NCBI GenBank assembly: GCA_017546085.1
Contig: JAFYXQ010000005.1
Coordinates: 1-44,532 of the forward strand
Length of the DNA stretch: 44,532 nucleotides
Direction of reading: 5' to 3'
From: Alphaproteobacteria bacterium
Lineage (GTDB): Bacteria > Pseudomonadota > Alphaproteobacteria > Rs-D84
Positions 129 through 35,988 of the stretch are shown here, in pieces (position 1 is the stretch's first letter; every line of letters starts with the position of its first letter). The notes under the pieces were generated by a model. That model was not told where the DNA came from. It worked only from the letters and a program-made list of their open reading frames with translations, and searched no databases. A program made the position numbers and the translations under genes.

Positions 129-572
129 ATGTTAGATAAAAAAGTAAAGGTTTTGGTTAAATTACCATATAGTCTCTTGCAAAAAGTTAAACATATGGAA
201 CTATGTCCTGAAATATCACATAAAAAAGCCGTTCAATTGATTGAAAAAATATCTGAACAAACCCCATATATCAAAGGATGTTCACTATTATTATGCGCAG
301 ACTATAAAATGTTCGCCGGTGTAGAAAACTTGCCTTGCTTTTTGCCACCAACAGGAACAAAATCTGAACAGGTTCTAATTCTGGATATTTATTTTTTCCC
401 AGTTATTAATCGTTGTATGTGTGGTTTGAATATTGATAATAAAGCAACCCGTGGCGCCACAAAGGCATGTATAAAAAATATAAAGGCCGGAAAATGCTGC
501 GACCCAATTATACGTGATACAATCGGAAAAATCTTGTTTGCCGAAAAATATAATAAACAAAAAATAAAATAA
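129..572 (+). CDS. hypothetical cysteine-rich protein (147 aa; Met23 is an alternative start)
   Basis: Only long sense ORF in this interval, and it is followed by hairpins at 579-613 and 641-670. It has 9 Cys, including a KCCDPIIRD motif. No family recognised. Confidence 0.4.
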   Translation: MLDKKVKVLVKLPYSLLQKVKHMELCPEISHKKAVQLIEKISEQTPYIKGCSLLLCADYKMFAGVENLPCFLPPTGTKSEQVLILDIYFFPVINRCMCGLNIDNKATRGATKACIKNIKAGKCCDPIIRDTIGKILFAEKYNKQKIK

Positions 573-578
573 ATTCCC

Positions 579-613
579 CCGGCTTTTTTGAACATTTTTA
601 TTAAAAAAGCCGG
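579..613. repeat. 35-nt palindromic element, copy 1 (CCGGCTTTTTTGAACATTTTTATTAAAAAAGCCGG)
   Basis: Perfect 11-bp arms flank a 13-nt loop. Near-identical copies lie at 12810-12844 and 15587-15621. Confidence 0.75.
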
Positions 614-640
614 TAATTTTATTATTTTTCTGTAATTTAT

Positions 641-670
641 AAAAAACACCGGTGTTTGCCGGTGTTTTTT
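641..670. terminator. bidirectional intrinsic terminator hairpin
   Basis: AAAAAACACCGG-TGTTTG-CCGGTGTTTTTT has a 12-bp stem with A/T runs on both sides. It sits between convergent ORF 129-572 and pheT. Confidence 0.6.
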
Positions 671-674
671 GTTT

Positions 675-2978
675 TTATTTATCACGTATTTGTGCGTTAC
701 ATTTATTTTCAACCGCATCTATGACCTTGGTCTGTAATTCTTGTAAATCAGAATCAGACATATTTTCCGTCGGTTGAATTGTTATCGTAAATGCAATTGA
801 CTTTTTCCCATCAGATAAATCAAACGCATCAAATACAACAACGTTTGTTATGCGATTATCTGCCGCCTGAGCAACAGATGTTAATTTTTCAGCTGGTGTA
901 TCCGTATTTACAATAAACGCAAAGTCGCGCGATATTGGTTGATAATCAACCAGTACAGGCTGTTTACCAACACGTTTTGCCGGCAAATTTGTAATATCAT
1001 CAACTATTCCAATTACAACATTTGTTTTAATACGTAATTTTTTCGCAACAGATGGGTGCAATTCACCAAATTCTGCGATTTTCTTTTTTCCCTGCATTAT
1101 TGCACCATAACGGTATGGGTGTGCCCATAACGGTGGATTTTCAGAAGATACTGTGAAACGCTGACCCTGCATTAATGCGATTAAATCTGCCTTGATATCA
1201 TATATATCAATATCACGATTGCGACGCGTCCAATGTTTTGGTGATGTGGAACCACTGCGTACAATACAAATCGATGTATGCTGCTGTCCCGGCATATCGC
1301 CATCAAATATAGTTCCAAGTTCAAATAAATTCAAATCAGGAAAACCACGTTTTTCATTGTTTGAAACCGCAATCAATAATCCAAATAACAGACCATTGCG
1401 CATTGTGTCATAATCCGTGGTTATTGGATTTGATATTTTTATATTTGGTTTATCTGATAACATTTGTTCGATTGCCAAATTACCAAAACCAAACGAACGA
1501 CATTCGTTTAACCCACGTGATGCCAATAATGTTTTTAAATTTATTTCATGCATATCATGTGCCTGTCTATCACCGACGGTATGTTTACCTGTTGATATAA
1601 CCCTATCGTAACCATATATACGCAATAAATCGGCCACCACAGTTTCAGGAATTTCAACATCAACACGTGATGTTGGTGGGGTTACAATCCATTCATCTTT
1701 TTTAATATCAACAATATATCCCAAACGTTTTAATATTTCTTGTTGGGTTTCTGAATCCATATCCATACCCGTTTTTTTCAAAAAATATTTTGGTGTATAT
1801 TTTATATTAACCTTTGTTTTAATATCTGTGCCTGCCGCAAATGCACTTACAATTTTTCCACCACAAGCAGACATAATTATATCCGCAGCTTTCATCGCAG
1901 CAATACCCGTTATTGTTGGGTCGATACCACGTTCATATCGATATGATGCATCTGTTGATATTCCTAATCTTTTTGCAGATTTACGAACCGATACAGGGTC
2001 AAAATATGCACTTTCTAAAATAATATTTTTAGTTTCATTTGTTGTGGAACCACGCGAACCACCAATTACACCAGCCAGTGCTAAAATGCCCGCAGCATCA
2101 GCAATAACCATATCCGTATCAACCAATTCGTGTTCATTTCCAAACAGGTCTGTGAATTTTTCACCGTTTTTAGCCATACGTACAATGATATCGCCTTCAA
2201 TTTTACCTGCATCAAAACAATGCATAGGTTGCCCCATGTCATAACAAATATAATTCGTTGCATCAACTGGCGCATTCTTTGGATTTATACCAATTGCAGA
2301 TAAACGTGATGCTATTTTTTCATTACTTGGGTTCATGGTTATATCGCTGATTTCAATCAACTTGTATGCATGACACTTATCTGTTTTTACAACAACCTTG
2401 CGATTACCAGATAAGGATTCAAATTCCATGTCTTTTGGTGCAATATATTCGCCAATACCTGCGGCGGACAAATCACGCGCAATACCACGAACAGATAAAT
2501 AATCCGGTCTATTCGGTGTAATACCCGCATCAAATACCGTTTGTTGATTAAATAAAGATGAACCAATAACTTTATCTGATGGTAATTCAATAATACCACT
2601 ATGATCATCACCGATACCAAGTTCTTTTGCAGAACACATCATACCATCTGATAAAACACCACGTAATTTACCTGATACGATTTCATGACCATCAATAATA
2701 CACCCCGGTATCGCCAGCGCAGATATCAAACCCACGCGTGCATTTGGCGCACCGCATACAACCTGACGCAGGGTACCGGTACCATCATCAACCATTAACA
2801 CATGTAAATGGTCGCTATTTTCATGGGCTTTGCATTCAACAATCTTTGCCACAATTGGTGAAATAGTTGTTTGAAGATCTTCTACCTCTAATCCAATACG
2901 GGTTAACGTATCCGATATTTTAGACGCGGATGCATCTGTTTTTAAATAATCTTGTAACCAATCAAGTGTCCATTTCAT
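675..2978 (-). CDS. pheT: phenylalanine--tRNA ligase beta subunit
   Basis: 767-aa ORF directly downstream of pheS. It has an N-terminal tRNA-binding (EMAP-like) region, B3/4 and B5 regions and a C-terminal anticodon-binding-like domain, with typical PheT length. Confidence 0.95.
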   Translation of the reverse strand: MKWTLDWLQDYLKTDASASKISDTLTRIGLEVEDLQTTISPIVAKIVECKAHENSDHLHVLMVDDGTGTLRQVVCGAPNARVGLISALAIPGCIIDGHEIVSGKLRGVLSDGMMCSAKELGIGDDHSGIIELPSDKVIGSSLFNQQTVFDAGITPNRPDYLSVRGIARDLSAAGIGEYIAPKDMEFESLSGNRKVVVKTDKCHAYKLIEISDITMNPSNEKIASRLSAIGINPKNAPVDATNYICYDMGQPMHCFDAGKIEGDIIVRMAKNGEKFTDLFGNEHELVDTDMVIADAAGILALAGVIGGSRGSTTNETKNIILESAYFDPVSVRKSAKRLGISTDASYRYERGIDPTITGIAAMKAADIIMSACGGKIVSAFAAGTDIKTKVNIKYTPKYFLKKTGMDMDSETQQEILKRLGYIVDIKKDEWIVTPPTSRVDVEIPETVVADLLRIYGYDRVISTGKHTVGDRQAHDMHEINLKTLLASRGLNECRSFGFGNLAIEQMLSDKPNIKISNPITTDYDTMRNGLLFGLLIAVSNNEKRGFPDLNLFELGTIFDGDMPGQQHTSICIVRSGSTSPKHWTRRNRDIDIYDIKADLIALMQGQRFTVSSENPPLWAHPYRYGAIMQGKKKIAEFGELHPSVAKKLRIKTNVVIGIVDDITNLPAKRVGKQPVLVDYQPISRDFAFIVNTDTPAEKLTSVAQAADNRITNVVVFDAFDLSDGKKSIAFTITIQPTENMSDSDLQELQTKVIDAVENKCNAQIRDK

Positions 2979-2993
2979 AATTATACCCCCGTA

Positions 2994-3941
2994 TTAGAAT
3001 CCTGCTGTTTTTAACCAACGAATATCATTATTATATAAGTCCCGCAAATCTGGCAGATTGTATTTTAACATCGCCAATCTGTCCCATCCAAAACCAAAGG
3101 CAAATCCCTGATATTCGTCTGGATTGATTCCACAATTACGTAATACATTTGGATGAACCATACCAGCACCCATTAATTCCAACCATTTATCATTTTTCCA
3201 TTTCATATCTATTTCTATAGATGGGTCTGTAAATGGAAAATAAGACGGACGTATGCGTAATTCTACATTTTCAATACCAAAATATTTTGATAAAAAAGCA
3301 CGAACATCTGCCAACAAATCTGACATTGTTACGTTTTTATCAACATATAACCCTTCTATCTGACCAAACATTGGACCATGGGTTGCATCCCATTCTTTGC
3401 GATATGTAGAACCAACACCAAACATTTTAATTGGCACACCATCAGATTCCATTGCACGTATTTGAATCGAAGATGTTTGTGTACGCAATACATTCCCATT
3501 ATCAAGGAAGAAACTGTCTTGCATATCACGTGCAGGGTGATGTATTGGGGTGTTTAATGCAGTAAAGTTATGCCAGTCATCTTCGATTTCCGGACCTGTG
3601 TACATTTTATATCCAAATGACTCTAATATTTCAGAAATTTCTGACAAGCTCTGTGTCAATGGATGTAATGTTCCGCGATTTTCGGGCATTGGATTTAATG
3701 ATACATCCAATTTTTGCTTTTCCAACGAAGCCATTAAAACAGCGTTTTCAATTTCCGTTTGGCGTGTTTTAAACAATTCACGCAACGTTTGATTTTCCAT
3801 ATTTAATGCCGCACGCGCATCATTATCCAAGTTTTTCATTTCTTTCAAGCGCGCCGTCATTGTGCCGTTTTTACCATATGTCGCCGCATGCAGTGCCTGT
3901 AATTCTTCGAGTGTATTTATCTTTTTTATTTGTTCTTGCAT
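2994..3941 (-). CDS. pheS: phenylalanine--tRNA ligase alpha subunit
   Basis: 315 aa with class II aaRS motifs (HPARDMQDSFF, FRKEWDATHGPMFGQIEG, GFAFGFGWDRLAML). It lies 15 nt upstream of pheT. Confidence 0.95.
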   Translation of the reverse strand: MQEQIKKINTLEELQALHAATYGKNGTMTARLKEMKNLDNDARAALNMENQTLRELFKTRQTEIENAVLMASLEKQKLDVSLNPMPENRGTLHPLTQSLSEISEILESFGYKMYTGPEIEDDWHNFTALNTPIHHPARDMQDSFFLDNGNVLRTQTSSIQIRAMESDGVPIKMFGVGSTYRKEWDATHGPMFGQIEGLYVDKNVTMSDLLADVRAFLSKYFGIENVELRIRPSYFPFTDPSIEIDMKWKNDKWLELMGAGMVHPNVLRNCGINPDEYQGFAFGFGWDRLAMLKYNLPDLRDLYNNDIRWLKTAGF

Positions 3942-3976
3942 AACTTTACCCTATATAACTTTTTATTAAAAAAAAT

Positions 3977-4000
3977 AAAAGCCGTCGTTTGACGGCTTTT
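3977..4000 (-). terminator. intrinsic terminator/attenuator hairpin between rplT and pheS
   Basis: AAAAGCCGTC-GTTT-GACGGCTTTT forms the hairpin. On the minus strand it is followed by a T-run (complement of the A-run at 3968-3976). Confidence 0.55.
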
Positions 4001-4033
4001 ATTATTACAAAAGATATACCTGCCGACAAGGTA

Positions 4034-4402
4034 TTATTTAGATTCGGCAGTGATAAATCGTTTTGCTGTGTCAACCAATTTGGTGAAGTTTGCATCGCCT
4101 GCATATGCCATTTCGGCCAAAACCTTGCGGTCAAGTGCAATACCTGCCTTCTTCAGACCATTCATAAATTGACTATAAGTCATACCATTTGCGCGTACTG
4201 CTGCGTTGATACGGACAATCCACAAACCACGAAATTCACGTTTTTTAACGCGACGGTCGCGATATGCATACTGACCCGCTTTTTCTGTTTTTTCACGCGC
4301 AGCGCGATATGTTGAATGATGACGGCCCAAGAAACCCTTGGCACGCGCCAATATCTTATTATGTTTTTGTTTTACGGTTGTTCCACGTTTTACTCTTGCC
4401 AT
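4034..4402 (-). CDS. rplT: 50S ribosomal protein L20
   Basis: 122 aa starting MARVKRG..., basic, with the conserved L20 N-terminus. It lies downstream of rpmI. Confidence 0.95.
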
Positions 4403-4419
4403 GACTGTACCCCCTTAAA

Positions 4420-4623
4420 TTATTTCAAACCATATGGGGCCAGTATTTTCGCCTGTCCAACCATGTTATCGTTCAAATACTGTGGCTTTGCACCTGCCTT
4501 GTTTGCGCGGGCAGATTTCTTGCGCAACAGTTTCTTATGAGAGTTTCTTGCAACGCGGATTTTTCCAGTTGCAGTCATAGAAGCACGCTTCTTTAAATAT
4601 GACTTTGTTTTTAATTTTGGCAT
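4420..4623 (-). CDS. rpmI: 50S ribosomal protein L35
   Basis: 67 aa starting MPKLKTKS..., lysine/arginine-rich, immediately upstream of rplT. Confidence 0.9.
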   Translation of the reverse strand: MPKLKTKSYLKKRASMTATGKIRVARNSHKKLLRKKSARANKAGAKPQYLNDNMVGQAKILAPYGLK

Positions 4624-4765
4624 TTTATATCCTTATTGTTTTTAGATAGTTTTTTTTGTCTGATGGCAATGCCTTGCCACTTCGACTGCTGATTATTTTG
4701 ACATAAATAAATGAAAAATCAAGTTTTTATTGAATATCTGGTTTTTTAGGGTTAAAGTAAGCGCG

Positions 4766-5590
4766 ATGAAGCAAAATAAAATATCTTCTAAAATCTATCC
4801 ATTAATCAGAGCTGTGGCAGCAGCGATGGTTTTGCCTGTTTTGTTTATATATATCATGATTGCAAAGCCTGATTATAAAATAATGAACGCATTATCACAT
4901 GTTGTTGTACCGGTCGCACAGTGGATAGGAAACATTGTTACATGGCCAATTCGTGCGGTCGGTGGTGCAATTGATAATATCGGAGAAATGTCAAATTTGC
5001 GGGCTGAAAATGAAGAATTACGCATAAGATTGGATGAGGCATTAAACAACCAAGCTATCTGCAGTATCGCAATAGAAGAAAATAAAAAACTGCAACATGA
5101 ACTTGATATCACAAATACACAACCGCGTGATACAGTTATCGCTGATATTATTCATGATAATCGTGCAATCGGACATAATACATATATTATTAACCGTGGT
5201 GCAAATAAGGGAATTGAGCCAAATATGGTTGTTATGTCACCAAATATGATGCTGGCAGGAATTATTATTGATGTTGCACCACATTTTTCACGTGTACGGG
5301 CATTGACTGATTCTGATACAAATATCGCTGTACGCGTTGTCGGGTCAGAGGTTTATGGTTTTATGACAGGTAATGGTTCAAGCACACCAACAATGGGATT
5401 TTTTAGCGACCCTGAATTTCAACCGTCCGCAGGAATAAAATTAGTTACAAGTAATATATCAGGTGTTATACCATCAGGCTTAACCGTTGGGGAAATGATT
5501 GATGAATCTGATGTTAAAATATATCCTGTATCAAAATTATCACGCGTAATTGTATTAAAATTCGATACACCACAAAACGAATATAAATGA
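4766..5590 (+). CDS. mreC: rod shape-determining protein MreC
   Basis: N-terminal TM segment, coiled coil (LRAENEELR) and a C-terminal beta domain ending in the TSN.SGV.PSGL.VGE pattern. The ATG at 4766 is preferred over the TTG at 4730. Confidence 0.8.
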   Translation: MKQNKISSKIYPLIRAVAAAMVLPVLFIYIMIAKPDYKIMNALSHVVVPVAQWIGNIVTWPIRAVGGAIDNIGEMSNLRAENEELRIRLDEALNNQAICSIAIEENKKLQHELDITNTQPRDTVIADIIHDNRAIGHNTYIINRGANKGIEPNMVVMSPNMMLAGIIIDVAPHFSRVRALTDSDTNIAVRVVGSEVYGFMTGNGSSTPTMGFFSDPEFQPSAGIKLVTSNISGVIPSGLTVGEMIDESDVKIYPVSKLSRVIVLKFDTPQNEYK

Positions 5591-6042
5591 AAGAAAATAT
5601 TGTTTCTTTTTTGAAAAAATCTTTCCCGTTTTTGTTAACAATCGGGTTGTGGCGACTGTCCACACCAATATGGAATCCTGCGGGAATACTTGCCATTATC
5701 CCAATATTTTATTGCAGTTTTATTAGACCAATTCCATGGTTTGCATTGTTTAGTGTTTTTATGTGCTTTGTTATTGATTATAAATTTGAAACTATTTGTT
5801 TTTGGGTTGCGATGTATTGCCTGTTCTATGCGATAAACAGCTTTCAAAATTTAATCGATATTCAACGCATGGATAAAAATGCGATTTTTGCATTTCTTGT
5901 TTTTTTTGGTATATGTATAATTTTACAGATTTTTTCAAATCTATCTTTTATAAACCTGATTAATGGAATTTGGATTTTTATGTGGGTAACGTTGTTATAC
6001 ACACCAACAGTGGTATTAATCAAAAGGATTTATCATGATTGA
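5587..6042 (+). CDS. mreD: rod shape-determining protein MreD (polytopic membrane protein)
   Basis: 151-aa hydrophobic protein. It has an ATGA overlap with mreC and overlaps the mrdA start. The call is positional. Confidence 0.55.
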   Translation: MKENIVSFLKKSFPFLLTIGLWRLSTPIWNPAGILAIIPIFYCSFIRPIPWFALFSVFMCFVIDYKFETICFWVAMYCLFYAINSFQNLIDIQRMDKNAIFAFLVFFGICIILQIFSNLSFINLINGIWIFMWVTLLYTPTVVLIKRIYHD

Positions 6043-7800
6043 TACCGAAGTTTCACGTACATTCGATAGACGTAGTGCCTTGTTCCTGACTGCGGGTGCG
6101 GTATTAACATCTGGACTGATTTTGCGTATGTTACAAATGCAATTATTTAGCTATCAGACCTATAAGAAAAAAAGCGAAAACAACTCATTTCGTATTCAGA
6201 TTAATATGCCTGAACGTGGTAAAATACTATCGCGAAGTGGCGTACCTATTTCACGAGATATGCCGATATATCGTATTTATATTATTCCGGAAGAAGCCAA
6301 GGATTTAGAATACCTGATTCAAACGTTGCAAAAGGATTTGAATCTGAAACCAAAACGTGTTGAAAGTATTCGTAAAAAAATAAAAAAACAGATGAAATTT
6401 CAACCCGTATTGGTTAGTGAAAATACAAACTGGAAAAAACTGGCGCAAATTCAAGCAAAAAATATTTCTGGATTACATGTGGAAAGTGGTTATGCACGTG
6501 TGTATGAAATGGGACCTGCGGGGGCACAGATTTTTGGATATGTGGGGAACCTGCAAAACCCGTGCCAAACACACCATTTTTAACAACAGGCATTACTGGA
6601 CTTGAAAAGAAATTTAATGATGTTATGAAGGGTGATGCCGGAAAAACTGTTATGATAACAAATGCAGTTGGACGTATCACTGGTGAAGATAAATCTTTAT
6701 TCGTTCCACCAATAACAGGTGATGATGTAAAAACAACTATTGATGCAAACACACAGCGCATATTACATGACGCGTTAACACAACATCGTTCTGGGTGTGG
6801 TGTGGTTTTAGATATTAAATCTGGTGATATTTTGGCAATGGTTTCAACCCCAAGTTTCGATCCAAATATCTTCCGCGAAGATGATGGTGATGAATATATC
6901 GATAATTTACGTAATGATATCGCAAAACCATTTATGAATAAAACAATCGAAGGTTTATATCCCCCAGGTTCCACATTCAAAATAGTTGTAGCATTGGCAG
7001 CATTAGAAGCAGGCGCAATAACAGAAAAAGAAAAAATATTCTGTCCAGGACATTGGGATTACGGGGATAGACGTTATCACTGCTGGGAAGATAAAGGGCA
7101 TGGTTATGTCGATTTAGCAGGTGCATTAAAACATTCTTGCGACATATATTTTTATCAAATCGCATTACGTATCGGTATTGATTCTATCAAAGAAATGGCG
7201 ATAAAATTAGGACTGACAGAAAAATATATGGATGATATTTTATCGCGTGAAATGGCAGGGGTTATGCCAGATAGATATTGGAAAGAAAAACAAGTTGGTG
7301 CCCGTTGGGTTCATGGCGACACGATTATTTCAGGAATCGGTCAGGGATTTATTTTGACAAACTGTTTGCAATTGGCAGTTATGATGGCGCGTACCACATC
7401 AAATAAAAATGTGATTCCACGTATTATAAAATCCGACCAAAGACCTGTATTTAATAATCTAGGATTACAACAGAAAAATATCAAATTTGTTCTGAACGGT
7501 TTGGAACAGGTTACAAAAAAGGGTGGAACCGCCGCAGGAAGCGCGATTAATGTGGACGGAAAACGTATGGGCGGAAAAACAGGAACTTCACAGGTTCGTA
7601 GCATTTCTAAAAAAGAACGTGAAAGTGGGGTTCTGACAAATGAACAATTAAAGTGGCATATGCGAAACCATGGATTGTTTGTTGGATATGCACCAACTAA
7701 TAATCCAAAATATGCAGTTTGTATTGTTACAGAACATTCAGGCAGCAGCGGTCCTGCAGCACGTACTGCAGCAACAGTAATGAAGGAATTATTAAAATAA
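6035..7800 (+). pseudogene. mrdA: penicillin-binding protein 2 (elongasome transpeptidase), interrupted by a frameshift near 6555-6583
   Basis: The N-terminal part (6035-6583) has the TM anchor and pedestal, ends ...FGYVGNLQNP and stops at TAA 6581-6583. The other frame (6562-7800) continues ...PNTPFLTTGITGLEKKF and carries the transpeptidase motifs STFK, SCD and KTGT. Confidence 0.85.
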
Positions 7801-7802
7801 CA

Positions 7803-8948
7803 ATGGTAAAACAAACACGTGTTTCAAATGCAAATATGATGATGTTTTCTGAAAAACTAAGCCGTTTTTCATGGGGCTTGTTTGTACCAATGTGTATGGT
7901 ATTAACAATTTCAATTGTTGTTTTATATTCCGCAGGTGGGGGCAATTGGAAACCATTTGCACTGTCCCAATTAATAAAAATTATACTGGGATTTGGGGTA
8001 TTTTTCTTTGCTGCATTTAGTAATATAAAAACATGGGTAAAATCTGCATATATGATATATGCAATCGCATTAATTATGATTGTATTGGTTACATTTGTGG
8101 GACACACTGGTATGGGTGCACAAAGATGGCTAAACCTTGGGTTTATTCATATACAACCGTCTGAATTAATTAAAATTGCGCTGGTATTAGCATTGGCGCG
8201 ATATTTTGCATGGTTTAATTCTGTGGAATTAGGACAAATAAAAAATTATATGGTACCTATGTTAATGTTGATGGTTCCGTTTGGTTTAATTGTTGCACAA
8301 CCTGATTTAGGAACAGCATTATCACTTGGTATGATTACAGTTGGGGTATTTTATATTGTTGGGGCAAACAAAAAATGGTTTATTATTGCGGCTGTGCTGG
8401 GGCTGATGGCAGCACCTGCAATTTGGTTTGGTGGTTTACACGATTATCAACGTGGCCGAATTATAACACTGTTTAATCCAAACAGTGATTTACAGGGGGC
8501 AGGATATCAAATCAATCAGGCAAAAATAGCATTTGGCAGTGGTGGTATGACCGGTAAAGGTTATATGCAGGGTTCGCAATCACAACAATCTTTTTTACCA
8601 GAAAAACAGACTGATTTTATATTCACTATGCTGGGCGAAGAATTTGGATTTATTGGTGCGTTTGGTCTGCTGATGATATATACATGGATTGTAATTTTAT
8701 TATTTTGGGCCGCAAAAAAATGCAGAAATAGATTTGGACAATTAATTTGTTTTGGTTTTATGTTGAACTTTTTTGTTTATTATTTTATAAATATTTCTAT
8801 GGTTTTGGGATTACTGCCGACAGTGGGGGTTCCGTTGCCGTTGATGTCATTCGGGGGCAGCAGTTTATTATCACTAATGTTCGGATTCGGATTATGCCAA
8901 AACGCATATATTCACAAAGACCAACAATTATCTGCAAAGGGGAGTTAA
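7803..8948 (+). CDS. rodA: peptidoglycan glycosyltransferase RodA (SEDS family)
   Basis: Polytopic 381-aa protein with SEDS signatures (QPSELIKI, PEKQTDFIF, GVPLPLMSFGGSS). The ATG at 7803 follows the mrdA stop. Confidence 0.9.
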   Translation: MVKQTRVSNANMMMFSEKLSRFSWGLFVPMCMVLTISIVVLYSAGGGNWKPFALSQLIKIILGFGVFFFAAFSNIKTWVKSAYMIYAIALIMIVLVTFVGHTGMGAQRWLNLGFIHIQPSELIKIALVLALARYFAWFNSVELGQIKNYMVPMLMLMVPFGLIVAQPDLGTALSLGMITVGVFYIVGANKKWFIIAAVLGLMAAPAIWFGGLHDYQRGRIITLFNPNSDLQGAGYQINQAKIAFGSGGMTGKGYMQGSQSQQSFLPEKQTDFIFTMLGEEFGFIGAFGLLMIYTWIVILLFWAAKKCRNRFGQLICFGFMLNFFVYYFINISMVLGLLPTVGVPLPLMSFGGSSLLSLMFGFGLCQNAYIHKDQQLSAKGS

Positions 8949-8952
8949 GGAT

Positions 8953-11190
8953 ATGAATTTATTAATTGTGGAATCACCATCCAAAGCCAAAACGATTGAA
9001 AAATACCTGGGGGCAGGGTGGCGTGTTATCGCATCTGTTGGTCATGTTCGTGATTTGGTTCCTGAAAACGGCAGTGTTGATACAAATAATAACTTTGCAA
9101 TGAAATGGCAAATTATGCCCGGCAAAGAAAAACAAATTAAATTAATTACTGATGAACTGAAGAAAGCTGATGCAGTATATCTCGCAAGCGACCCTGACCG
9201 CGAAGGGGAAGCAATTGCATGGCATTTGCTTGATATATTAAAGGCAAAAAGATTACTGAAAGATAAAAAAGTTTATCGTGTCGCATTTCATGAAATTACA
9301 AAAAAAGCTGTTCAGACCGCAATTGATGCACCACGCGAAATTGATAAAAACTTGGTTGACGCATACCTTGTACGTCGCGCGTTGGATTATTTGATTGGGT
9401 TTAGTATTTCACCATTATTATGGCGCAGAAATTTAGGAAAATCTGCGGGACGTGTACAATCTGTGGCCGTTAAATTGGTGGTTGACCGCGAAAAAGAAAT
9501 CGAAGATTTTAAACCGGTTGAATATTGGTCACTGGAATCTATGTGTACACTGGATTCCGCTGTATTCAAAGCAATGCTTAATAAATTTAATGGTCAGAAA
9601 ATTGAAAAAATGACCATTGAAAATAAACAAACTATTGATGATATTTTATCAAAAATCGGCACCCCTGTTATTAATGCAACAGTGGTAAATGTGGACAAGA
9701 AAAAAACAACACGAAAACCTGCTGCGCCGTTTACCACATCAACGTTACAACAGGAAGCGGCGCGTAAATTATATTTTGCATCAAAACGCACAATGAGTGC
9801 CGCACAAAAATTATATGAACAAGGTTTAATTACGTACATGCGTACGGATGCAACAAACCTGAATGCGGATGCGATTAATGAAATTCGTGGTTTTATTGGG
9901 CGTGAATATGGGGATAAATTCTTGCCTAAGAATCCAAATATTTATGCAACAAAGTCTAAAAATGCACAAGAAGCACACGAAGCTATCCGACCAACACATT
10001 TTGATGCACCAGCAAAAAATCTGTCTGGGGATGAAGCAAAGTTATATGACCTGATATGGAAACGCACAATCGCATGTCAGATGTGTAACGCAGAATTTGA
10101 TTCTGTTGCTGCAGATATAGAAGTTGAAAATAAATCTGCAATATTCCATGCAGTTGGTTCCACACGTGTATTTGATGGATTTATGAAGGTTTATACCGAA
10201 GATAAAGATGATGAAGATGATAACAAAGAATCAAAATTACCGGTATTAAACGTTGGTGATAGTATAAAAATTAAAGAACTAATTCCAGAACAACATTTTA
10301 CACAGGCACCACCAAGATATACAGAAGCATCTTTGGTTAAAAAATTAGAAGAACTTGGGATTGGACGTCCATCAACATACGCAACTATTATGTCAACAAT
10401 CGTTGACCGCGCATATGTTGAACAAGACAAACAACGTCGTTTTCATCCAACAAGTGGGGGATGGGTTATCGCATCATATTTGAATAAATATTTTACTGAT
10501 TTAGTTGATGTTAATTTTACTGCGAAAACCGAAGATACGCTCGACGATGTTTCAAATGGTAAACAAGATAAAATCACCGCACTTAAAAATTTCTGGGAAC
10601 CAACAGACAATATGATTGATGGTGCACGGGGAATTAAAACCAGTGATATTATTGATGAAATTAATAATTTTATGAACAAACACTTGTTCCCTGATGGTAA
10701 TGATAAATGCCCTGAATGTGGCGAAAATTTAGGTATTAAATTATCTAAATTTGGCCCATTTATCGGATGTTCAAACTATCCAAAATGTGGATATACAAAA
10801 CAATTAAATAAAACCGATAAATCTGTAGATAATATAGAATCCAATACACAAACAAAATCTGATAGTGTTGATTTGGGAGATGGTATTGAATTTCGTATAG
10901 GTAAATTTGGACCATATGTTACAGATGGTGTAAAGAATGTCGCAGCAAAACAATATAACAACGAAACGATAACACTTGAAATTGCACGTGATTTATTGGC
11001 AAACGCCGGTAAGAAGGCCGAACCAATAAAAATAGGTGAAAACCCTGATACAAAAAAGATGATTTTTTATTATCCAACAGGACGATACGGTGCATACATT
11101 TCATCAAATCGTGTTAATGTTTCCGTTAAATCACAACCTGATTTAGAAACAGCAATTAAGCTAATAAATACCAAGGCGCAAAATAAATAA
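8953..11190 (+). CDS. topA: DNA topoisomerase I
   Basis: 745 aa with a Toprim start (LLIVESPSKAKTIEKYLG), the active-site region GLITYMRTD and a C-terminal Zn finger (CPECG...CSNYPKC). Confidence 0.95.
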   Translation: MNLLIVESPSKAKTIEKYLGAGWRVIASVGHVRDLVPENGSVDTNNNFAMKWQIMPGKEKQIKLITDELKKADAVYLASDPDREGEAIAWHLLDILKAKRLLKDKKVYRVAFHEITKKAVQTAIDAPREIDKNLVDAYLVRRALDYLIGFSISPLLWRRNLGKSAGRVQSVAVKLVVDREKEIEDFKPVEYWSLESMCTLDSAVFKAMLNKFNGQKIEKMTIENKQTIDDILSKIGTPVINATVVNVDKKKTTRKPAAPFTTSTLQQEAARKLYFASKRTMSAAQKLYEQGLITYMRTDATNLNADAINEIRGFIGREYGDKFLPKNPNIYATKSKNAQEAHEAIRPTHFDAPAKNLSGDEAKLYDLIWKRTIACQMCNAEFDSVAADIEVENKSAIFHAVGSTRVFDGFMKVYTEDKDDEDDNKESKLPVLNVGDSIKIKELIPEQHFTQAPPRYTEASLVKKLEELGIGRPSTYATIMSTIVDRAYVEQDKQRRFHPTSGGWVIASYLNKYFTDLVDVNFTAKTEDTLDDVSNGKQDKITALKNFWEPTDNMIDGARGIKTSDIIDEINNFMNKHLFPDGNDKCPECGENLGIKLSKFGPFIGCSNYPKCGYTKQLNKTDKSVDNIESNTQTKSDSVDLGDGIEFRIGKFGPYVTDGVKNVAAKQYNNETITLEIARDLLANAGKKAEPIKIGENPDTKKMIFYYPTGRYGAYISSNRVNVSVKSQPDLETAIKLINTKAQNK

Positions 11191-12800
11191 TGGCAGGACT
11201 AGACCGCAATTTTACCGATGAACTACGCGCACGTTTATCTGTGGTTGATGTTGTTGGTCGTGTTGTTCCATTAACACGCAAGGGCCAAAATTATTGGGGT
11301 TGTTGTCCATTTCATAATGAAAAAACCCCCAGTTTTTCTGTTAATGAAGAAAAAGGATTTTATCACTGTTTCGGCTGTGGTGAACACGGTGATATTATTT
11401 CTTTTACAATGAAACACAATAATATGGATTTTCGCGCAGCGATTACCGAACTCGCTAATCAGGCGGGGTTGAAAATGCCTGATTACAAACCACGCGATCC
11501 AAATATTGTCCGACACGAAGATAATTTATTTGATATTTGCGAAAAAGCGTCTCTATCATATGCAGAAAAATTATTCACACCAGATGGGGCACATGCACTT
11601 GAATACGTACGAAAACGCGGTTTTTCTGATGATATGATAAAAAAATATCGTATTGGATATGCGCCTAAGAATAATCTTATTGCAAATAAATTTGCAGAAT
11701 CAAAATACTTGATTCAGTCGGGGCTTTGTCGGCGCGGAGAATATGGATTATACGATTTCTTTCGCGATAAATTAATGTTTCCTATATTTAATGCGAATGG
11801 ACGTGTTGTCGCGTTTTCAGGACGTTCTTTGGACGGCAGTGAACCTAAATACATAAATACCGGTGATACCGATATATTCCATAAACGAAAAACTGTTTTT
11901 GGTTTAAATTTTGCACGCGATGCAATTCATCGCGCAAATCGTAGCATTATTGTCGAAGGACAAATTGATGCAATAAAAATGCAAATTAACGGATTTCCTG
12001 AAACAGTCGCCCCACTAGGAACTGCATTAACAGAAGATCATATTGCATTGTTATGTAAATCAAATAGAAATATTACATTTTGTTTTGATGGTGATGCTGC
12101 AGGACAAAAGGCTGCACAACGTGCATGTGGTATTATTATACCTTTTTTACGCGATACATCTGATGTAAAATTTGCCTTTGTTTCGGGTGGCAAGGATCCT
12201 GATGAAATATTAAAATCAGGTGGAATAGATGCCATGAAAAAAATTATAGATGATGCAATTCCATTGGTTGATTATCTGTGGCAAATTACAAATTCTAATT
12301 TTTTAATAACAACCCCTGGGGGACGTAGTCAGGCTGAAAAATTCCTAAAAAAAGAACTGGATAAAATTACAGATCCAGATTTAAAATCAGAATTTGAAAA
12401 AGAATATAATGCGCGCAAATTTAATACATGGCATAAATGGAAGAAGTCAAATATATCTGTAAACATTAAATTACCTGATATTGATACGATTACAAAAAAT
12501 ACACTGATTTATATTGTAAATACATATCCTGAATTGGTGGAAAAATATGTCGATTTTCTTGGTACACTGGGAATTGATTTTGATGGGATTGCACCGGTAT
12601 TAAATCTTAGTTTAGAAGCAGCAGAAAAATATATTGTTTCGTTGAAACTGCAAAGATATCTCGAGCGGTTAAATATTCAAAAACGAGAATTTACAAATCA
12701 GTTATTAGCAGGAAATGATGCCGCACGTGAAGAAATTGCTAAAATTGATGAGGAAATACAAAAATACACTGAAAAATTAGAAATTCTTATTTCTATATAA
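11190..12800 (+). CDS. dnaG: DNA primase
   Basis: Zn ribbon CCPFHNEKTPSFSV...YHCFGCGEHGD and Toprim motifs (IVEGQIDA, FDGDAAGQKAA). The ATG overlaps the topA stop. Confidence 0.95.
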   Translation: MAGLDRNFTDELRARLSVVDVVGRVVPLTRKGQNYWGCCPFHNEKTPSFSVNEEKGFYHCFGCGEHGDIISFTMKHNNMDFRAAITELANQAGLKMPDYKPRDPNIVRHEDNLFDICEKASLSYAEKLFTPDGAHALEYVRKRGFSDDMIKKYRIGYAPKNNLIANKFAESKYLIQSGLCRRGEYGLYDFFRDKLMFPIFNANGRVVAFSGRSLDGSEPKYINTGDTDIFHKRKTVFGLNFARDAIHRANRSIIVEGQIDAIKMQINGFPETVAPLGTALTEDHIALLCKSNRNITFCFDGDAAGQKAAQRACGIIIPFLRDTSDVKFAFVSGGKDPDEILKSGGIDAMKKIIDDAIPLVDYLWQITNSNFLITTPGGRSQAEKFLKKELDKITDPDLKSEFEKEYNARKFNTWHKWKKSNISVNIKLPDIDTITKNTLIYIVNTYPELVEKYVDFLGTLGIDFDGIAPVLNLSLEAAEKYIVSLKLQRYLERLNIQKREFTNQLLAGNDAAREEIAKIDEEIQKYTEKLEILISI

Positions 12801-12809
12801 TAAAAAATA

Positions 12810-12844
12810 CCGGCTTTATTGAACATTTTTATTAAAAAAGCCGG
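12810..12844. repeat. 35-nt palindromic element, copy 2 (likely acts as bidirectional terminator)
   Basis: CCGGCTTTATTGAACATTTTTATTAAAAAAGCCGG has 1 mismatch to copy 1. It sits between convergent dnaG and rfbD. Confidence 0.75.
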
Positions 12845-12855
12845 TATTTTTAGTT

Positions 12856-13686
12856 TTAATTTTTTCTTAATTCATATATACATTTTTTTAATCCATCGCG
12901 CCAATGCGGTATTTTTATACCGAATGTTTCGGTAATTTTTGATTTATCCAAGACACTGTATGATGGACGTGTGGCAGGTGTTGGATATTGTGATGTTTTT
13001 ATTGGATTTACCATACAAGTTATGTCTGATAATTCCATTATTTCTATTGCAAAATCATACCATGAACAAACCCCCATATTGGTAAAATGGTATATTCCAG
13101 AATTTTCCCTGGTCATTTGTGGGATTATTTTTACAATGGCCGCAGCCAAATCTGATGCATATGTTGGTGTGCCAATTTGGTCTGAAACAACATTTATTTC
13201 GTTGCGTTCCGCCCCCAAGCGACGCATCGTTTTTACAAAATTATTCCCATAAACAGAATACAACCATGCCGTACGTATAATTATATAACATTCAGAATTT
13301 TCAATTACTGCCAATTCCCCATCACGCTTGGTTTTACCATATACGGATGTTGGATTTGTTTCATCATCTGGGGTGTATGGAATATGTCCTGTACCATCAA
13401 AAACGTAATCTGTAGAAATATGTATTAATTTTGCACCAGATTGCGCAAGATTTTTTGGACCATCTGTGTTAATTTTTTTTGCAAGATCAATATCACTTTC
13501 TGCGCGGTCAACCGCCGTATAGGCCGCACAATTAATTATTAAATCAATATTGTTTTCATTAACAAATTTATTTACTGCAACAGCATCTGTAATATCCAAT
13601 GTATCAACATCAGCACATATCGCATTTGGTAATAATTTTTTTAATTCGGTCCCCAGTTGACCATTACATCCCGTTATTAGGTACAT
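12856..13686 (-). CDS. rfbD: dTDP-4-dehydrorhamnose reductase
   Basis: 276 aa with an N-terminal Rossmann motif (ITGCNGQLG), a YGKTK catalytic motif and RPSYSVLD near the C-terminus. Confidence 0.9.
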   Translation of the reverse strand: MYLITGCNGQLGTELKKLLPNAICADVDTLDITDAVAVNKFVNENNIDLIINCAAYTAVDRAESDIDLAKKINTDGPKNLAQSGAKLIHISTDYVFDGTGHIPYTPDDETNPTSVYGKTKRDGELAVIENSECYIIIRTAWLYSVYGNNFVKTMRRLGAERNEINVVSDQIGTPTYASDLAAAIVKIIPQMTRENSGIYHFTNMGVCSWYDFAIEIMELSDITCMVNPIKTSQYPTPATRPSYSVLDKSKITETFGIKIPHWRDGLKKCIYELRKN

Positions 13687-14215
13687 CTTTTAACCCCTTG
13701 GCTATTCTATCTTTGTCTGATGTTATTATTTTGTCCGCAGGTACACCCCAATCAACACCAATATCAGGATCATCAAAACGAATACCAAATTCTGATTGTG
13801 GCGCATATAAATTATCACATTTATATGCAAAAACTGCTGTTTCTGATAAAACTGAAAAACCGTGTAAAAATCCACGAGGTATGAATAACTGACGTTTATT
13901 TTCATCACTTAATTCAACTGCAACATACTTTCCAAATGTTGGTGAATTTTTACGAATATCAACCGCAACATCAAGAACACGACCATGAAGAACACGAACA
14001 AGTTTTGCCTGCGCATGTTCGCCAAGCTGACAATGTAAACCACGTACAACACCGTATGATGATTTTGACTGATTGTCTTGAACAAATTTATTTGGAATTC
14101 CATTTTTTATAAATTCTGCTTCGTTATATGATTCAAAAAAGTAACCACGTGCATCTTCGAATACACGTGGTTCAACAATTATAACGCCATCAAGTTCTGT
14201 TTTTATAAAATTCAT
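13664..14215 (-). CDS. rfbC: dTDP-4-dehydrorhamnose 3,5-epimerase
   Basis: 183-aa cupin with FEDARGYFFE, VRGLHCQ and FIPRGFLHGF motifs. It overlaps rfbD by 23 nt. Confidence 0.9.
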   Translation of the reverse strand: MNFIKTELDGVIIVEPRVFEDARGYFFESYNEAEFIKNGIPNKFVQDNQSKSSYGVVRGLHCQLGEHAQAKLVRVLHGRVLDVAVDIRKNSPTFGKYVAVELSDENKRQLFIPRGFLHGFSVLSETAVFAYKCDNLYAPQSEFGIRFDDPDIGVDWGVPADKIITSDKDRIAKGLKDVPNNGM

Positions 14216-14238
14216 TTCCTTGCCTTATTTTTTTATGG

Positions 14239-15318
14239 TTAATTGTTAAACAAGAAATGACATATGTCGCCGTTGTTCATAATGTAATCACGACCAACAA
14301 GACGCATTTTGCCGGCTTCTTTTACTGCGACTTCACCCCCAAGGTTAATAAAATCTTCGGGTGTAATAATTTCAGCACGAATAAAACCTTTCTCGAAATC
14401 TGTGTGAATTTTTCCTGCGGCCTGTGGTGCTGTCATTCCAGTAGTTATAGTCCAAGCATGTGCTTCCTTGGGACCGATGGTATAATATGTTTGCAGGCCC
14501 AATGTTTTGTACCCTGTTTTAATAACCTGATCGAGACCAGATTCTGTTAACCCCAAATCTTCGAGGAACATTTTACGCTCTTCTATATCAATAATTTGTG
14601 ATATTTCCATCTCAATCTTTGATGATATAACGAGAACATCCGCAATTTTTCCGTATTTTTCACGTACCATATCAGAATATTTATTACCAGTCGCAGCAGA
14701 AGCTTCATCAACGTTACATACATAAATCACAGGTTTCGAAGTCAATAAATTAAAAGGCTTTGAATCAACATCTACATTTCGCGCAGGAATAAATTTTTCC
14801 AGATTTTCCTTGATAATATTTGCATCTGCCAATAATTTTATCGCATCTTTGTCTAAACCACGTGCCTTCTTTTCAAGGTTTTTTATTTGTTTTTCTATAC
14901 TTTCAAGGTCCGATAACATTAATTCTGTTTCAATTGTTTCGATATCTGATAACGGATCAATATGACCATTAACATGTACAATATCGTCATTTTCAAAACA
15001 TCTTACAACGTGAATAATCGCATCCGTAGAAAGAATATTGCCAAGGAATTTATTCCCTAAACCTTCACCTGCTGATGCTCCCTTGACCAAGCCTGCAATA
15101 TCAACTATTTCAAGCTGAGTAGGTATTAATTTCTGAGAGCCCGCCACACGCGCCAATTCATGCAAGGTATTATCCGGCACAACAACACGACCAGTATTTG
15201 GTTCGATGGTGCAAAATGGATAGTTTTGTGCATCGGCAGCCGCACTCTGTGTCAAAGCATTAAATAACGTAGATTTTCCAACATTTGGTAAACCCACAAT
15301 TCCACAATTGAAACCCAT
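14239..15318 (-). CDS. ychF: redox-regulated ribosome-binding ATPase YchF
   Basis: Starts [23 protein letters not shown] (G1 motif) and has the C-terminal TGS-like/YchF domain ([12 protein letters not shown]). The upstream 19-codon extension in the ORF track was rejected. Confidence 0.95.
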
Positions 15319-15337
15319 AATAAAATCCTTTATAATA

Positions 15338-16018
15338 ATGCTTAATATGTCATACATATGGAATGAATTCAACATAAAAACCTTTCCAGCGGAAACAATT
15401 GTTTTCCGCGATGGTGTATATTGTCCTGAATTATCAACATTAGAATATAAACCTATTAATAAAAATTTTAAATTACCAGTACATATTATATATATTGGTG
15501 AAATTGCCGGTAAAAACGATTTAAATATTGATTTAGGTGCAGAAAATCAAAAAGTAATCGTTACAATAAAAATAAAAAATGAAAAGCCGGCTTTTTTAAA
15601 CATTTTTATTAAAAACACCGGTAAAAATTCTGAAATAAATGCAAATGTTGCAATAAAAAATTATTCTGAGTTAAATTATAAATGTACAGCAAATCATTTG
15701 TATAAAAATACGGCTATTTTGATAAAAAATAAAATTTTAGCCGGTAAAAATTCAAAATCTATACTTTCAGGAAATGCGATTATAAATAAGGATTGTATAG
15801 ATTGTATTTCTGATGTGGGTTTTTCTGCAATGGTTGAAAAGAATGCGAAAATTGAATTTTTACCAGAACAAAATATTGCAGCAATTCCAAAATCAGCAGA
15901 ACATAGTGCAAATATATACCGTGGTACAGATGCCCAAATTTTATATTTGCGTCAGGCGGGATTAGGTATTATTGAAATTGATGACGTTTTAAAAGAAGCT
16001 TTTTTGAATGATTTTTAA
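15338..16018 (+). CDS. SufB/SufD-family Fe-S assembly-like protein, short orphan form
   Basis: The C-terminus (...AEHSANIYRGTDAQILYLRQAGLGIIEIDDVLKEAFLNDF) matches the conserved SufBD C-terminal pattern, preceded by beta-helix-like repeats. The start is uncertain (ATG 15338 or 15347). Confidence 0.55.
   Translation: MLNMSYIWNEFNIKTFPAETIVFRDGVYCPELSTLEYKPINKNFKLPVHIIYIGEIAGKNDLNIDLGAENQKVIVTIKIKNEKPAFLNIFIKNTGKNSEINANVAIKNYSELNYKCTANHLYKNTAILIKNKILAGKNSKSILSGNAIINKDCIDCISDVGFSAMVEKNAKIEFLPEQNIAAIPKSAEHSANIYRGTDAQILYLRQAGLGIIEIDDVLKEAFLNDF
15587..15621. repeat. 35-nt palindromic element, copy 3, located inside the SufD-like CDS
   Basis: CCGGCTTTTTTAAACATTTTTATTAAAAACACCGG has 3 mismatches to copy 1. 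It is read in frame as PAFLNIFIKNTG. Confidence 0.7.
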
Positions 16019-16044
16019 TAAAAATGTATAATTATAAAATAAAA

Positions 16045-16060
16045 ACCGGCAATCGCCGGT
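16045..16060. terminator. hairpin between convergent SufD-like gene and rpmJ
   Basis: ACCGGC-AATC-GCCGGT is flanked by an A-run (16041-16045) and a T-run (16062-16066). Confidence 0.5.
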
Positions 16061-16064
16061 ATTT

Positions 16065-16199
16065 TTATTTCTTCTTGAAACCCTGTTTTGCCTTGAATTT
16101 TGGATTATCAGGATCAATCAAGATAACTTGCTTACCACGACGGATTTGTTTTACATTACCGCGTTTCTTCCAAGCCTTTAATGAACTTAAAAATTTCAT
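16065..16199 (-). CDS. rpmJ: 50S ribosomal protein L36 (Cys-less, alpha/mitochondrial-type)
   Basis: My hand translation of the minus strand gives MKFLSSLKAWKKRGNVKQIRRGKQVILIDPDNPKFKAKQGFKKK (44 aa). This fits the MK.R.SLK...R......R.G...VI....P.FKARQG pattern. It is too short for the supplied ORF track. Confidence 0.7.
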   Translation of the reverse strand: MKFLSSLKAWKKRGNVKQIRRGKQVILIDPDNPKFKAKQGFKKK

Positions 16200-16286
16200 G
16201 TCGTTATCCTTTTTACAATGGCGATTATAAACATATTTTTTGAAAAATCAAATAATATTATTATTTATAGTTGTTTTTGTAGGGCC

Positions 16287-35950: not shown

Positions 35951-35988
35951 AAAAAAACGCCGGATATATTCCGGTGTTTTTTTTATTT
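35951..35988. terminator. bidirectional terminator between tsaE and ftsA-rpe
   Basis: AAAAAAACGCCGGA-TATAT-TCCGGTGTTTTTTTT. It overlaps the stop codon of the minus-strand gene. Confidence 0.6.

Follow-up and report, generated by a model that had tools for sequence, protein, structure and literature searches.

The window, by which we mean the whole 44,532-nucleotide (nt) stretch of DNA analysed here, is contig C11 of an 822-kb assembly of 62 contigs and 39.5% G+C (labelled G000) from a small-genome alphaproteobacterium, and it contains three copies of a 35-nt palindromic element, for which CCGGCTTTTTTGAACATTTTTATTAAAAAAGCCGG served as the reference sequence. Two of the copies lie between convergent genes, and the third is read in frame within an open reading frame (ORF) for a protein of the SufD family, where comparison with homologues shows that it is native coding sequence. 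The copies and the genes around the second and third of them are as follows.

579-613, match on the plus strand: intergenic copy 1, with 0 mismatches to the reference 35-mer.
11190-12800, plus strand: dnaG, encoding primase (Pfam Zn_ribbon_DnaG, DNAG_N, Toprim), the 3' end of which probably carries the oldest intergenic copy of the family.
12810-12844, match on the plus strand: intergenic copy 2, with 1 mismatch to copy 1.
12856-14215, minus strand: rmlD and rmlC (Pfam RmlD_sub_bind, dTDP_sugar_isom).
14239-15342, minus strand: ychF, encoding a GTPase (Pfam YchF-GTPase_C, MMR_HSR1), divergent from the SufD-like gene.
15347-16018, plus strand: SufD-family beta-helix protein of 223 amino acids (aa), with an ATG at 15347 (Pfam SUFBD_core).
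15587-15621, plus strand: coding copy 3, inside the SufD-like ORF, with 3 mismatches to copy 1.

At 3 mismatches or fewer, the 35-mer has exactly three matches in the window, all on the plus strand, against a chance expectation of 0 matches in 100 dinucleotide-preserving shuffles. The view that all three go back to one palindromic unit, as homologous copies of it, is supported; their similarity stops at the borders of the 35 nt, and the sequences, coordinates and in-frame reading given for them in the initial annotation all hold. Copy 1 lies 6 nt past the stop of a 147-aa ORF (129-572, plus strand) and faces the convergent pheT (675-2978, minus strand), and copy 2 lies 9 nt past the dnaG stop and faces the convergent rmlD (12856-13686, minus strand). 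The genome-wide search proposed in that annotation did return a further copy, of which 28 nt are present at C39:3723-3750 before the contig ends, as well as a hairpin with identical arms and stem and another loop (C17:1546-1580), but only one coding copy. In an Rfam scan of the window no family was found at any palindrome copy, the only hits being two tRNAs. In the related genome G181, contigs C27 and C31 have their first 140 nt in common (the region of bases 1-145), ending within a palindrome copy. Contig ends thus fall within or next to the palindrome, so that the numbers of copies given for draft assemblies are minimum values.

The codons of the third copy spell PAFLNIFIKNTG, which corresponds to residues 81-92 of the 223-aa SufD-like protein, and the frame is kept. 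The longest ORF runs from a TTG at 15308 to 16018, and homologues start at MSY; likewise, the start of ychF is approximate, the ORF extending to 15375 and homologues (360-368 aa) pointing to ~15342. That the host protein is a beta-helix of the SUFBD_core type was found by three means: a Pfam match to SUFBD_core (PF01458; 31.7 bits, cut-off 27), a match of the SufD-family profile to E. coli SufD structures (E 2.8e-5), which covers the C-terminal half only, and an AlphaFold model based on 55 homologues (predicted local distance difference test, pLDDT, 93.1; predicted template modelling score, pTM, 0.87) that forms a right-handed beta-helix. In this model residues 82-90 (AFLNIFIKN) make up one strand of the helix, in a block with pLDDT of 95-98. 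The protein is much shorter than canonical SufD, and a full SufB-like gene is also present in the genome, on contig C24. SufD-like proteins have 377-387 aa in other families, and the 223-aa protein of this family is therefore a shortened beta-helix; near the segment these outgroup proteins are too diverged to give the ancestral nucleotide state.

The segment was compared in an alignment within the genus, with the SufD-like gene from 29 other genomes at 49-83% protein identity, and in an alignment across the family, with 21 further genomes from 10 other genera, for a total of ~50 genomes and 11 genera. It has equal length and no gap in 29 of 29 other genus genomes, most of which read PAFLNIFIKN[AT]GKNSE at this place, the best conserved stretch of the protein, and no homologue without it was found among the 21 genomes of the 10 other genera. 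Its DNA is also palindromic in the genera g11, g12, g13, g14, g16, g18, g19 and g20 (3-10 mismatches), and nine genera have hairpin-like DNA there. In g15 and g17, which branch early, the segment is unrelated and non-palindromic, of equal length in g15 and with two extra residues in the single g17 sequence, and decayed coding segments within the genus read xADFxIxIKNSG. These comparisons show that the copy at 15587-15621 is native coding sequence, namely a core beta-strand and turn, the strand being of equal length family-wide. Since homologues carry an equivalent ungapped peptide and this peptide forms a core strand, the coding copy is not an insertion in the manner of the Rickettsia palindromic elements (RPEs), as the initial annotation had suggested, nor is the segment of 12-13 aa an addition to a surface loop, the placement that it had wished to see checked. 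That annotation had named two findings that together would speak against insertion; an equivalent conserved peptide in homologues was indeed found, whereas a lack of further palindrome copies was not, as such copies do exist.

At the nucleotide level, the codons for P-A-F-[LF] ... K-N-[AT]-G are intrinsically self-complementary (CCGGCTTTTT / AAAAAYRCCGG), and the choice among synonymous codons is restricted where the stem closes. The palindrome opens with a Pro codon that is CCG in 27 of 27 cases (30 genus genomes examined), while CCG makes up 19% of Pro codons genome-wide and all four codons occur in four other conserved Pro columns of the SufD-like gene. The SufD-like gene and ychF together have 131 conserved four-fold codon columns, in which the commonest third base has a median share of 0.52, and this Pro column is the sole invariant one among them. 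When 44 distinct coding 35-mers were compared, the stem-closing pair at positions 3 and 33 was G/C in 35, G/T in 8 and T/T in 1, and the third base of codon 11 (position 33, the partner of the Pro third base) was never A or G, although A- and G-ending codons account for ~70% of Ala and Thr usage. The constraint is kept in six genus genomes and in eight other genera without any intergenic copy, and since it holds without an intergenic donor, it is not a by-product of gene conversion from a terminator. The stem-closing synonymous positions G3 and C33 are thus held constant far beyond codon usage, and this constancy suggests that the hairpin has a second role at the level of the nucleic acid. The folding energy of the coding hairpin is -7.0 kcal/mol for the sense and -10.2 kcal/mol for the antisense strand, and a U-rich tail (CUUUUCAUUUUUU) follows it on the antisense strand only. 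A change from C to T at position 33 keeps a G-U pair in the sense RNA and gives a C-A mismatch in the antisense RNA. Programmed -1 frameshifting on U UUU UUG was considered and rejected, as the -1 frame is unconserved and the structure does not lie downstream of the run.

The distribution of the element differs between its coding and intergenic forms. At 3 mismatches or fewer the 35-mer was found in 35 of 61 genus genomes (83 of 151 in a larger draw), and a control search with the reversed pattern gave no matches; in other genera of the family it was found in 1 of 20 genomes, as a coding copy, and in other families in 0 of 29. Palindromic coding DNA in our sample occurs within one family only. 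Genomes of the genus have 1-8 copies each, with 1-3 in most, 4 in G103 and 8 in G181, which agrees with the earlier idea of a family that multiplies. As is expected of an interspersed repeat, near-identical copies lie at non-orthologous intergenic sites, with seven such copies in G181 (on three contigs, at unrelated 3' ends, 0-2 mismatches), three in G103 and three in G000. Mapping of 20 loci gave a conserved neighbourhood in which dnaG is followed by an element, the convergent ychF, and then the SufD-like gene, with the element inside it, leading to virB3 and virB4. The divergent arrangement of ychF and a SufD-like gene extends beyond the family, to other families of the order (L071, L072, L075). 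The copy at the dnaG/ychF junction lies 3-85 nt past the dnaG stop in nearly all genus genomes examined and ~1.4 kb from the coding copy, with which it mostly shares its orientation. The loop is reversed relative to dnaG in four genomes, as would be expected from occasional recombination between the arms. In an unbiased look downstream of ychF in 19 genomes, the element was present in 12 (1-7 mismatches), and 6 of the remaining junctions had an ordinary short CCGGC-loop-GCCGG terminator.

A covariance model was derived from 21 intergenic copies and used to scan 34 genomes; outside the genus it gave one match above 45 bits per genome, which was always the coding copy, except in G166. In a ychF tree rooted on g15 and g17, the genera g12, g11, g20, g14 and g19, all with a coding palindrome, fall outside the clade that holds the genus, and the genomes with a non-palindromic coding segment (G059, G020 and G018) form a nested clade with a support of 99, so that the non-palindromic state is a secondary loss. 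The intergenic copy at dnaG/ychF is present in both main branches of the genus. On these phylogenetic grounds, the coding form is probably the older one, and the intergenic form would have arisen in the ancestor of the genus.

The opposite direction of descent also has to be weighed, in which an older terminator overwrote a similar beta-strand of the SufD-like gene by short-patch gene conversion or template switching, with repeated conversion keeping the coding copy terminator-like. Such an exchange is conceivable for two sites that are direct repeats only 1.4 kb apart; the decayed segments (xADFxIxIKNSG) are already similar in their peptide pattern, so that a replacement would be tolerable, and the near-identity of intergenic copies within one genome suggests homogenisation. 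However, the eight other genera that have the coding palindrome, with CCG and with C or T in codon 11, have no intergenic donor, and the six genus genomes without an intergenic copy retain the coding palindrome. In addition, the coding copy of a genome does not follow its intergenic copies in the variants seen at positions 12, 15 and 24, and the genomes with non-palindromic coding DNA are nested rather than basal. We therefore regard this direction as unlikely.

The anatomy of the two intergenic copies of the window suggests that they are bidirectional intrinsic terminators. The element consists of a 12-13-bp stem and a conserved 9-13-nt loop. The RNA hairpin of copy 1 has a folding energy of -15.2 kcal/mol on the plus strand, with the tail UAAUUUUAUU, and of -14.5 kcal/mol on the minus strand, where the tail has 4 U in its first 10 nt and is U-rich after GGGAA; that of copy 2 has -11.5 and -11.2 kcal/mol on the two strands, with the tails UAUUUUUAGU and UAUUUUUUAU. 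Three of these four tails are U-rich from the first base, with 7-8 U in the first 10 nt. A stable GC-anchored stem-loop followed by a U-rich tract is thus found at copies 1 and 2, and at the coding copy on the antisense strand only, and the position at the 3' ends of transcription units, mostly between convergent genes, holds in the window and in relatives. The folds, tails and positions agree with the proposal of the initial annotation that copies 1 and 2 resemble bidirectional terminators. Copy 2 corresponds by synteny to the terminator between dnaG and ychF in the genus, and in other species ordinary terminators occupy such orthologous sites. Two other readings of the intergenic copies were tried and rejected. 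Read-through translation was considered, as the copies are in frame with the upstream ORFs; one or two stops intervene, and across 14 relatives 7 copies are in frame with dnaG against ~5 expected. Coding-like variation was considered, as the variable positions 12, 15, 24 and 30 looked like third positions; 12/24 and 6/30 are stem-closing pairs (G-C, G-U, A-U), and the structure therefore explains their variation.

The same annotation had pointed to other terminators of CCGG-cored design in the window and to a relation between them and the 35-nt unit, and both are borne out. The short terminators of this type are the following.

639-672, no strand assigned: short CCGG-cored terminator of pheT, adjoining copy 1, with 15 pairs, a 4-nt loop and a T-run; it is the highest-ranked terminator-like site in the terminator scan.
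16045-16060, both strands: short CCGG-cored bidirectional terminator, ACCGGCAATCGCCGGT with T-runs, 27 nt past the SufD-like stop.
~35958-35983, no strand assigned: short CCGG-cored terminator.

The second of these is overlapped by a 68-aa ORF (16024-16230) just after the SufD-like gene. The ORF is nevertheless 78-97% identical in those relatives in which it was detected, and it may be either a genuine small gene or an element that is conserved without coding for protein.

How new copies may arise can be seen from orthologous sites in G181, the nearest relative, with 96% identity in ychF and 83% in the SufD-like protein, and in G103. At the mreB 3' end, G000 has AAAAAAACCGGCaaacGCCGG / CCGGCaaacGCCGG followed by nine T, and G181 has the same short hairpin fused directly to a full element via the shared arm GCCGGCTTTTTT. 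No target-site duplication was seen in this comparison of a filled with an empty site, and the site thus lacks what would mark a new insertion of a MITE (a miniature inverted-repeat transposable element), where terminal inverted repeats and such a duplication go together. The same fused architecture is present in G103 at a second orthologous site. A third site carries three different terminators, a CCCCCAAATGGGGG hairpin in G000, the element alone in G181, and a short hairpin fused to the element in G103, and at a fourth site G000 has the same arms with another loop (C17:1546) and G181 the canonical element. These filled and empty sites point to terminator turnover by homology-guided replacement, rather than transposition, as the probable origin of new copies.

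Copies of the element are also associated with accessory DNA and rearrangements. Pairs of palindromes frame accessory DNA at the dnaG/ychF junction in four loci (L051, L054, L055 and L059). This junction is a hotspot of accessory DNA in relatives (L051 10379-12001; L054 2465-3557; L055, L059, L065 and L067): the insert in L054 contains a 315-aa radical-SAM-like gene with a CxxxCxxC motif, that in L051 encodes a 193-aa porin-like protein and a 105-aa GIY-YIG nuclease, and L055, L059, L065 and L067 have ~1-kb unannotated gaps. The rmlCD genes lie between the dnaG terminator and ychF in the window and, with the same layout, in G181; they lie beyond virB4 in L053, L055, L056, L059 and L068 and elsewhere in most relatives. 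At the G181 site orthologous to copy 1, two identical palindromes frame a 306-nt cassette (L099 6227-6602, G181:C16) that comprises a structured leader ending in a terminator, a Shine-Dalgarno sequence and a 51-aa ORF (MSIKKTSRPTRDEAIEAIFESC...), and the leader recurs elsewhere in G103, G006 and G019. In another locus (L052, G019:C26), the ~12-kb block from pheT to dnaG is inverted by comparison with other genomes and has an identical palindrome at each end, which fits an inversion by recombination between copies.

The conservation of the loop (GAAYATTTTTATY), which is as high as that of the stem and holds in either orientation, leads to another explanation, in which the 35-mer, as a hairpin of DNA or RNA with a defined loop, serves first of all to be recognised sequence-specifically by a protein such as a cassette-integrating recombinase or a regulator, and termination is secondary. 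The framing of inserted accessory genes and of the small cassette by direct repeats would be in keeping with this, as would the clustering of all copies near one locus in most genomes and the elements without U-tails in G018 and G020. On the other hand, no candidate recombinase or partner gene was seen adjoining the copies, the inserts between copies are mutually unrelated, and more divergent orthologues vary in the loop (5-7 mismatches). Furthermore, about one third of the genomes sampled without bias have swapped the dnaG/ychF element for an ordinary short terminator, which fits an interchangeable terminator better than a recognition site. A primary role in recognition is, in our judgement, improbable.

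An RPE-like mobile palindrome that was inserted in frame into the SufD-like gene and added ~12 residues can now be judged against the known systems. RPEs are ~150 bp long, form ten families and add residues to proteins when inserted; 44 insertions were reported in the genome of Rickettsia conorii, nearly half of them in frame in coding genes (PMC10969869). The present element is like RPEs in that palindromic repeats of a small-genome alphaproteobacterium have intergenic copies and one in frame in a working gene; the intergenic and coding copies are identical at 32 of 35 positions, the family multiplies in some relatives, G181 reaching 8 copies, and two further genes of related genomes contain, in frame, a hairpin that has the same arms. 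One of these genes is lpxK, in which a second coding hairpin (CCGGYTTTTT...AAAAAGRCCGG) lies just upstream of the P-loop and is read in another frame, as YRLFWQKASKRPV; the covariance model found it in six genomes of the genera g12, g14, g15 and g16 (L103, L105, L107, L108, L110 and L111), and the full lpxK genes were taken from L112 and L113. The other is an ORF in G012 (L109, G012:C25:3002-3036), where the hairpin is in frame near the ORF start (MAVELNLLKKPAFLEKMDKKAGKIAENDDFY...) and could be a genuine in-frame hairpin insertion. In contrast to RPEs, the element here is 35 nt long, which is no multiple of three, and it has no flanking duplication at the coding copy. It occurs in 1-8 copies per genome, of which G000 has four with one of them coding, and genus-wide mostly at one locus rather than dispersed over several unrelated genes. 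Its single coding copy adds no residues relative to homologues in the 30 genus genomes and the 21 genomes of other genera, is a core strand (residues 82-90) rather than a peptide at a permissive site, and has a form that predates the intergenic one. An RPE-like insertion is thus very improbable. Coincidence, in which a peptide PAF...KNAG that is hairpin-prone (synonymous recodings fold at -3 to -8 kcal/mol on average) happens to be palindrome-encoded and terminators converged on the same sequence from CCGGC/GCCGG stems that are common in the genome, is hardly credible and is made untenable by the shared 13-nt non-palindromic loop, with identity at 32-34 of 35 positions, 0 of 100 shuffles matching and synonymous positions that are fixed.

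Among other repeats, the nearest functional analogue of the intergenic copies is SPRITE of pneumococci. This terminator-like repeat, of which a genome has ~30 copies, lies near the 3' end of coding sequences, with an enrichment where genes converge; it has an 18-bp duplex as well as a long U-rich tract, and no counterpart in coding DNA is reported for it (PMC3049150). Both are AT-rich interspersed terminator-like repeats of this placement, with no clear target-site duplication and no matching insertion sequence (IS) element or transposase; unlike SPRITE, the element here has 1-8 copies, a 12-13-bp stem, a conserved 9-13-nt loop and an older near-identical copy inside a gene. As in ordinary bidirectional terminators, a GC-anchored hairpin with an A-run and a T-run provides a U-tract on either strand and lies 3-85 nt past stops, but here the stem itself contains the A and T runs, the conserved loop is long, and one sequence is found again at unrelated sites as well as within a gene. 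Repetitive extragenic palindromic sequences and bacterial interspersed mosaic elements (REP/BIME) and repeats of the MITE type are likewise short extragenic palindromes that are possible terminators or mRNA stabilisers and are associated with rearrangements. The present element differs from them in its very low copy number, in the lack of a target-site duplication at the filled-versus-empty site, and in the fusion of copies with resident terminators via a shared arm, which points to recombination rather than transposition. No REP-associated tyrosine transposase (RAYT) or IS partner was seen, and no search was aimed at one.

The explanation that we favour, and consider probable by a moderate degree, is that a native coding hairpin under dual constraint seeded a genus-restricted family of bidirectional terminators, which spread by recombination with CCGG-cored terminators. 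At the origin of the genus, in its ancestor, the 35-nt coding hairpin would have been copied to the convergent junction that lies nearest, between dnaG and ychF, 1.4 kb away and in the same orientation. Later copies would result from homology-guided patching onto resident CCGGC-loop-GCCGG terminators, the 3' arm and T-run of which equal the 5' arm of the element. Transposition would be unnecessary as an assumption, and the copies would in addition delimit accessory genes and cassettes that were inserted.

Several observations weigh against this explanation or limit it. The direction of descent rests on parsimony, with 20 genomes of other genera and a weakly resolved single-gene tree, and there is one intergenic look-alike outside the genus, in G166 (g12), with 5 mismatches. 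On contig C1 of that genome (L106/L114) the order is dnaG, gmk, the palindrome-like hairpin and ychF, all on one strand; no SufD-like gene was detected in G166, and the hairpin may be a relic of a lost SufD-like gene that was retained as a terminator. As for termination, a simple terminator scan does not call the element, as its loop exceeds 8 nt, and the elements of G018 and G020 have no U-tract on either strand. Even where the coding copy has decayed the intergenic loop is conserved, and a plain terminator thus does not account for the constraint on it; that the loop is kept solely by concerted evolution with the coding copy was rejected, as genomes with decayed coding segments keep canonical intergenic copies. 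As for the coding hairpin, the energy test by synonymous recoding gave a modest result, with the observed energy at or below the null in 0-55% of recodings, and it is weak because the peptide itself is hairpin-prone. The stem shows no significant covariation, as it hardly varies, and the biological purpose of the coding hairpin amounts to a candidate role at the RNA level.

For this purpose we favour a role tied to the tightly packed divergent promoter region of ychF and the SufD-like gene. The start codons of the two genes are back to back, ~3-77 nt apart in the window and in L002-L020, and the promoter of each must therefore lie within the other. In the first 17 kb the promoter-like match that scores best, TTGAAA-17-TATAAT (11/12), is at 15308-15336, within the ychF 5' region, and a match TTTACC-18-TATAAT lies on the minus strand at 15514-15485, within the SufD-like gene. 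The first ~12 codons of the SufD-like gene (AAT ATG TCA TAC ... TTC AAY ATA AAA) are near-invariant in their nucleotides in 30 genomes. The coding hairpin might stop antisense transcription heading towards ychF, since only the antisense strand has a U-tail; alternatively, the exceptions with C changed to T at position 33 would fit pairing in the sense mRNA. As a bolder and more tentative proposal, which on balance we would rather doubt than endorse, protein-coding DNA may be the master copy of a terminator family: the hairpin that the codons of one SufD-like beta-strand form may have been kept at synonymous sites throughout the bacterial family, its second job probably being transcription control at the back-to-back promoters, and it may have been copied out in one genus as a portable bidirectional terminator that frames mobile gene cassettes.

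For annotation, this case shows that a palindromic repeat matching a coding segment is easily mistaken for an RPE-style insertion, where alignment, structure and phylogeny show the opposite polarity. If the favoured explanation is true, a coding segment has been under a dual constraint, on the protein and on nucleic-acid structure, across family-level divergence; a terminator was born from coding DNA; and a terminator "allele" spread by recombination with resident terminators and without transposition, a combination of three that has seldom been documented. Insertions recur at the dnaG/ychF junction, which has these hairpins on its flanks, and the element would be relevant to the ways in which very small AT-rich genomes replace their punctuation and reshuffle accessory genes.

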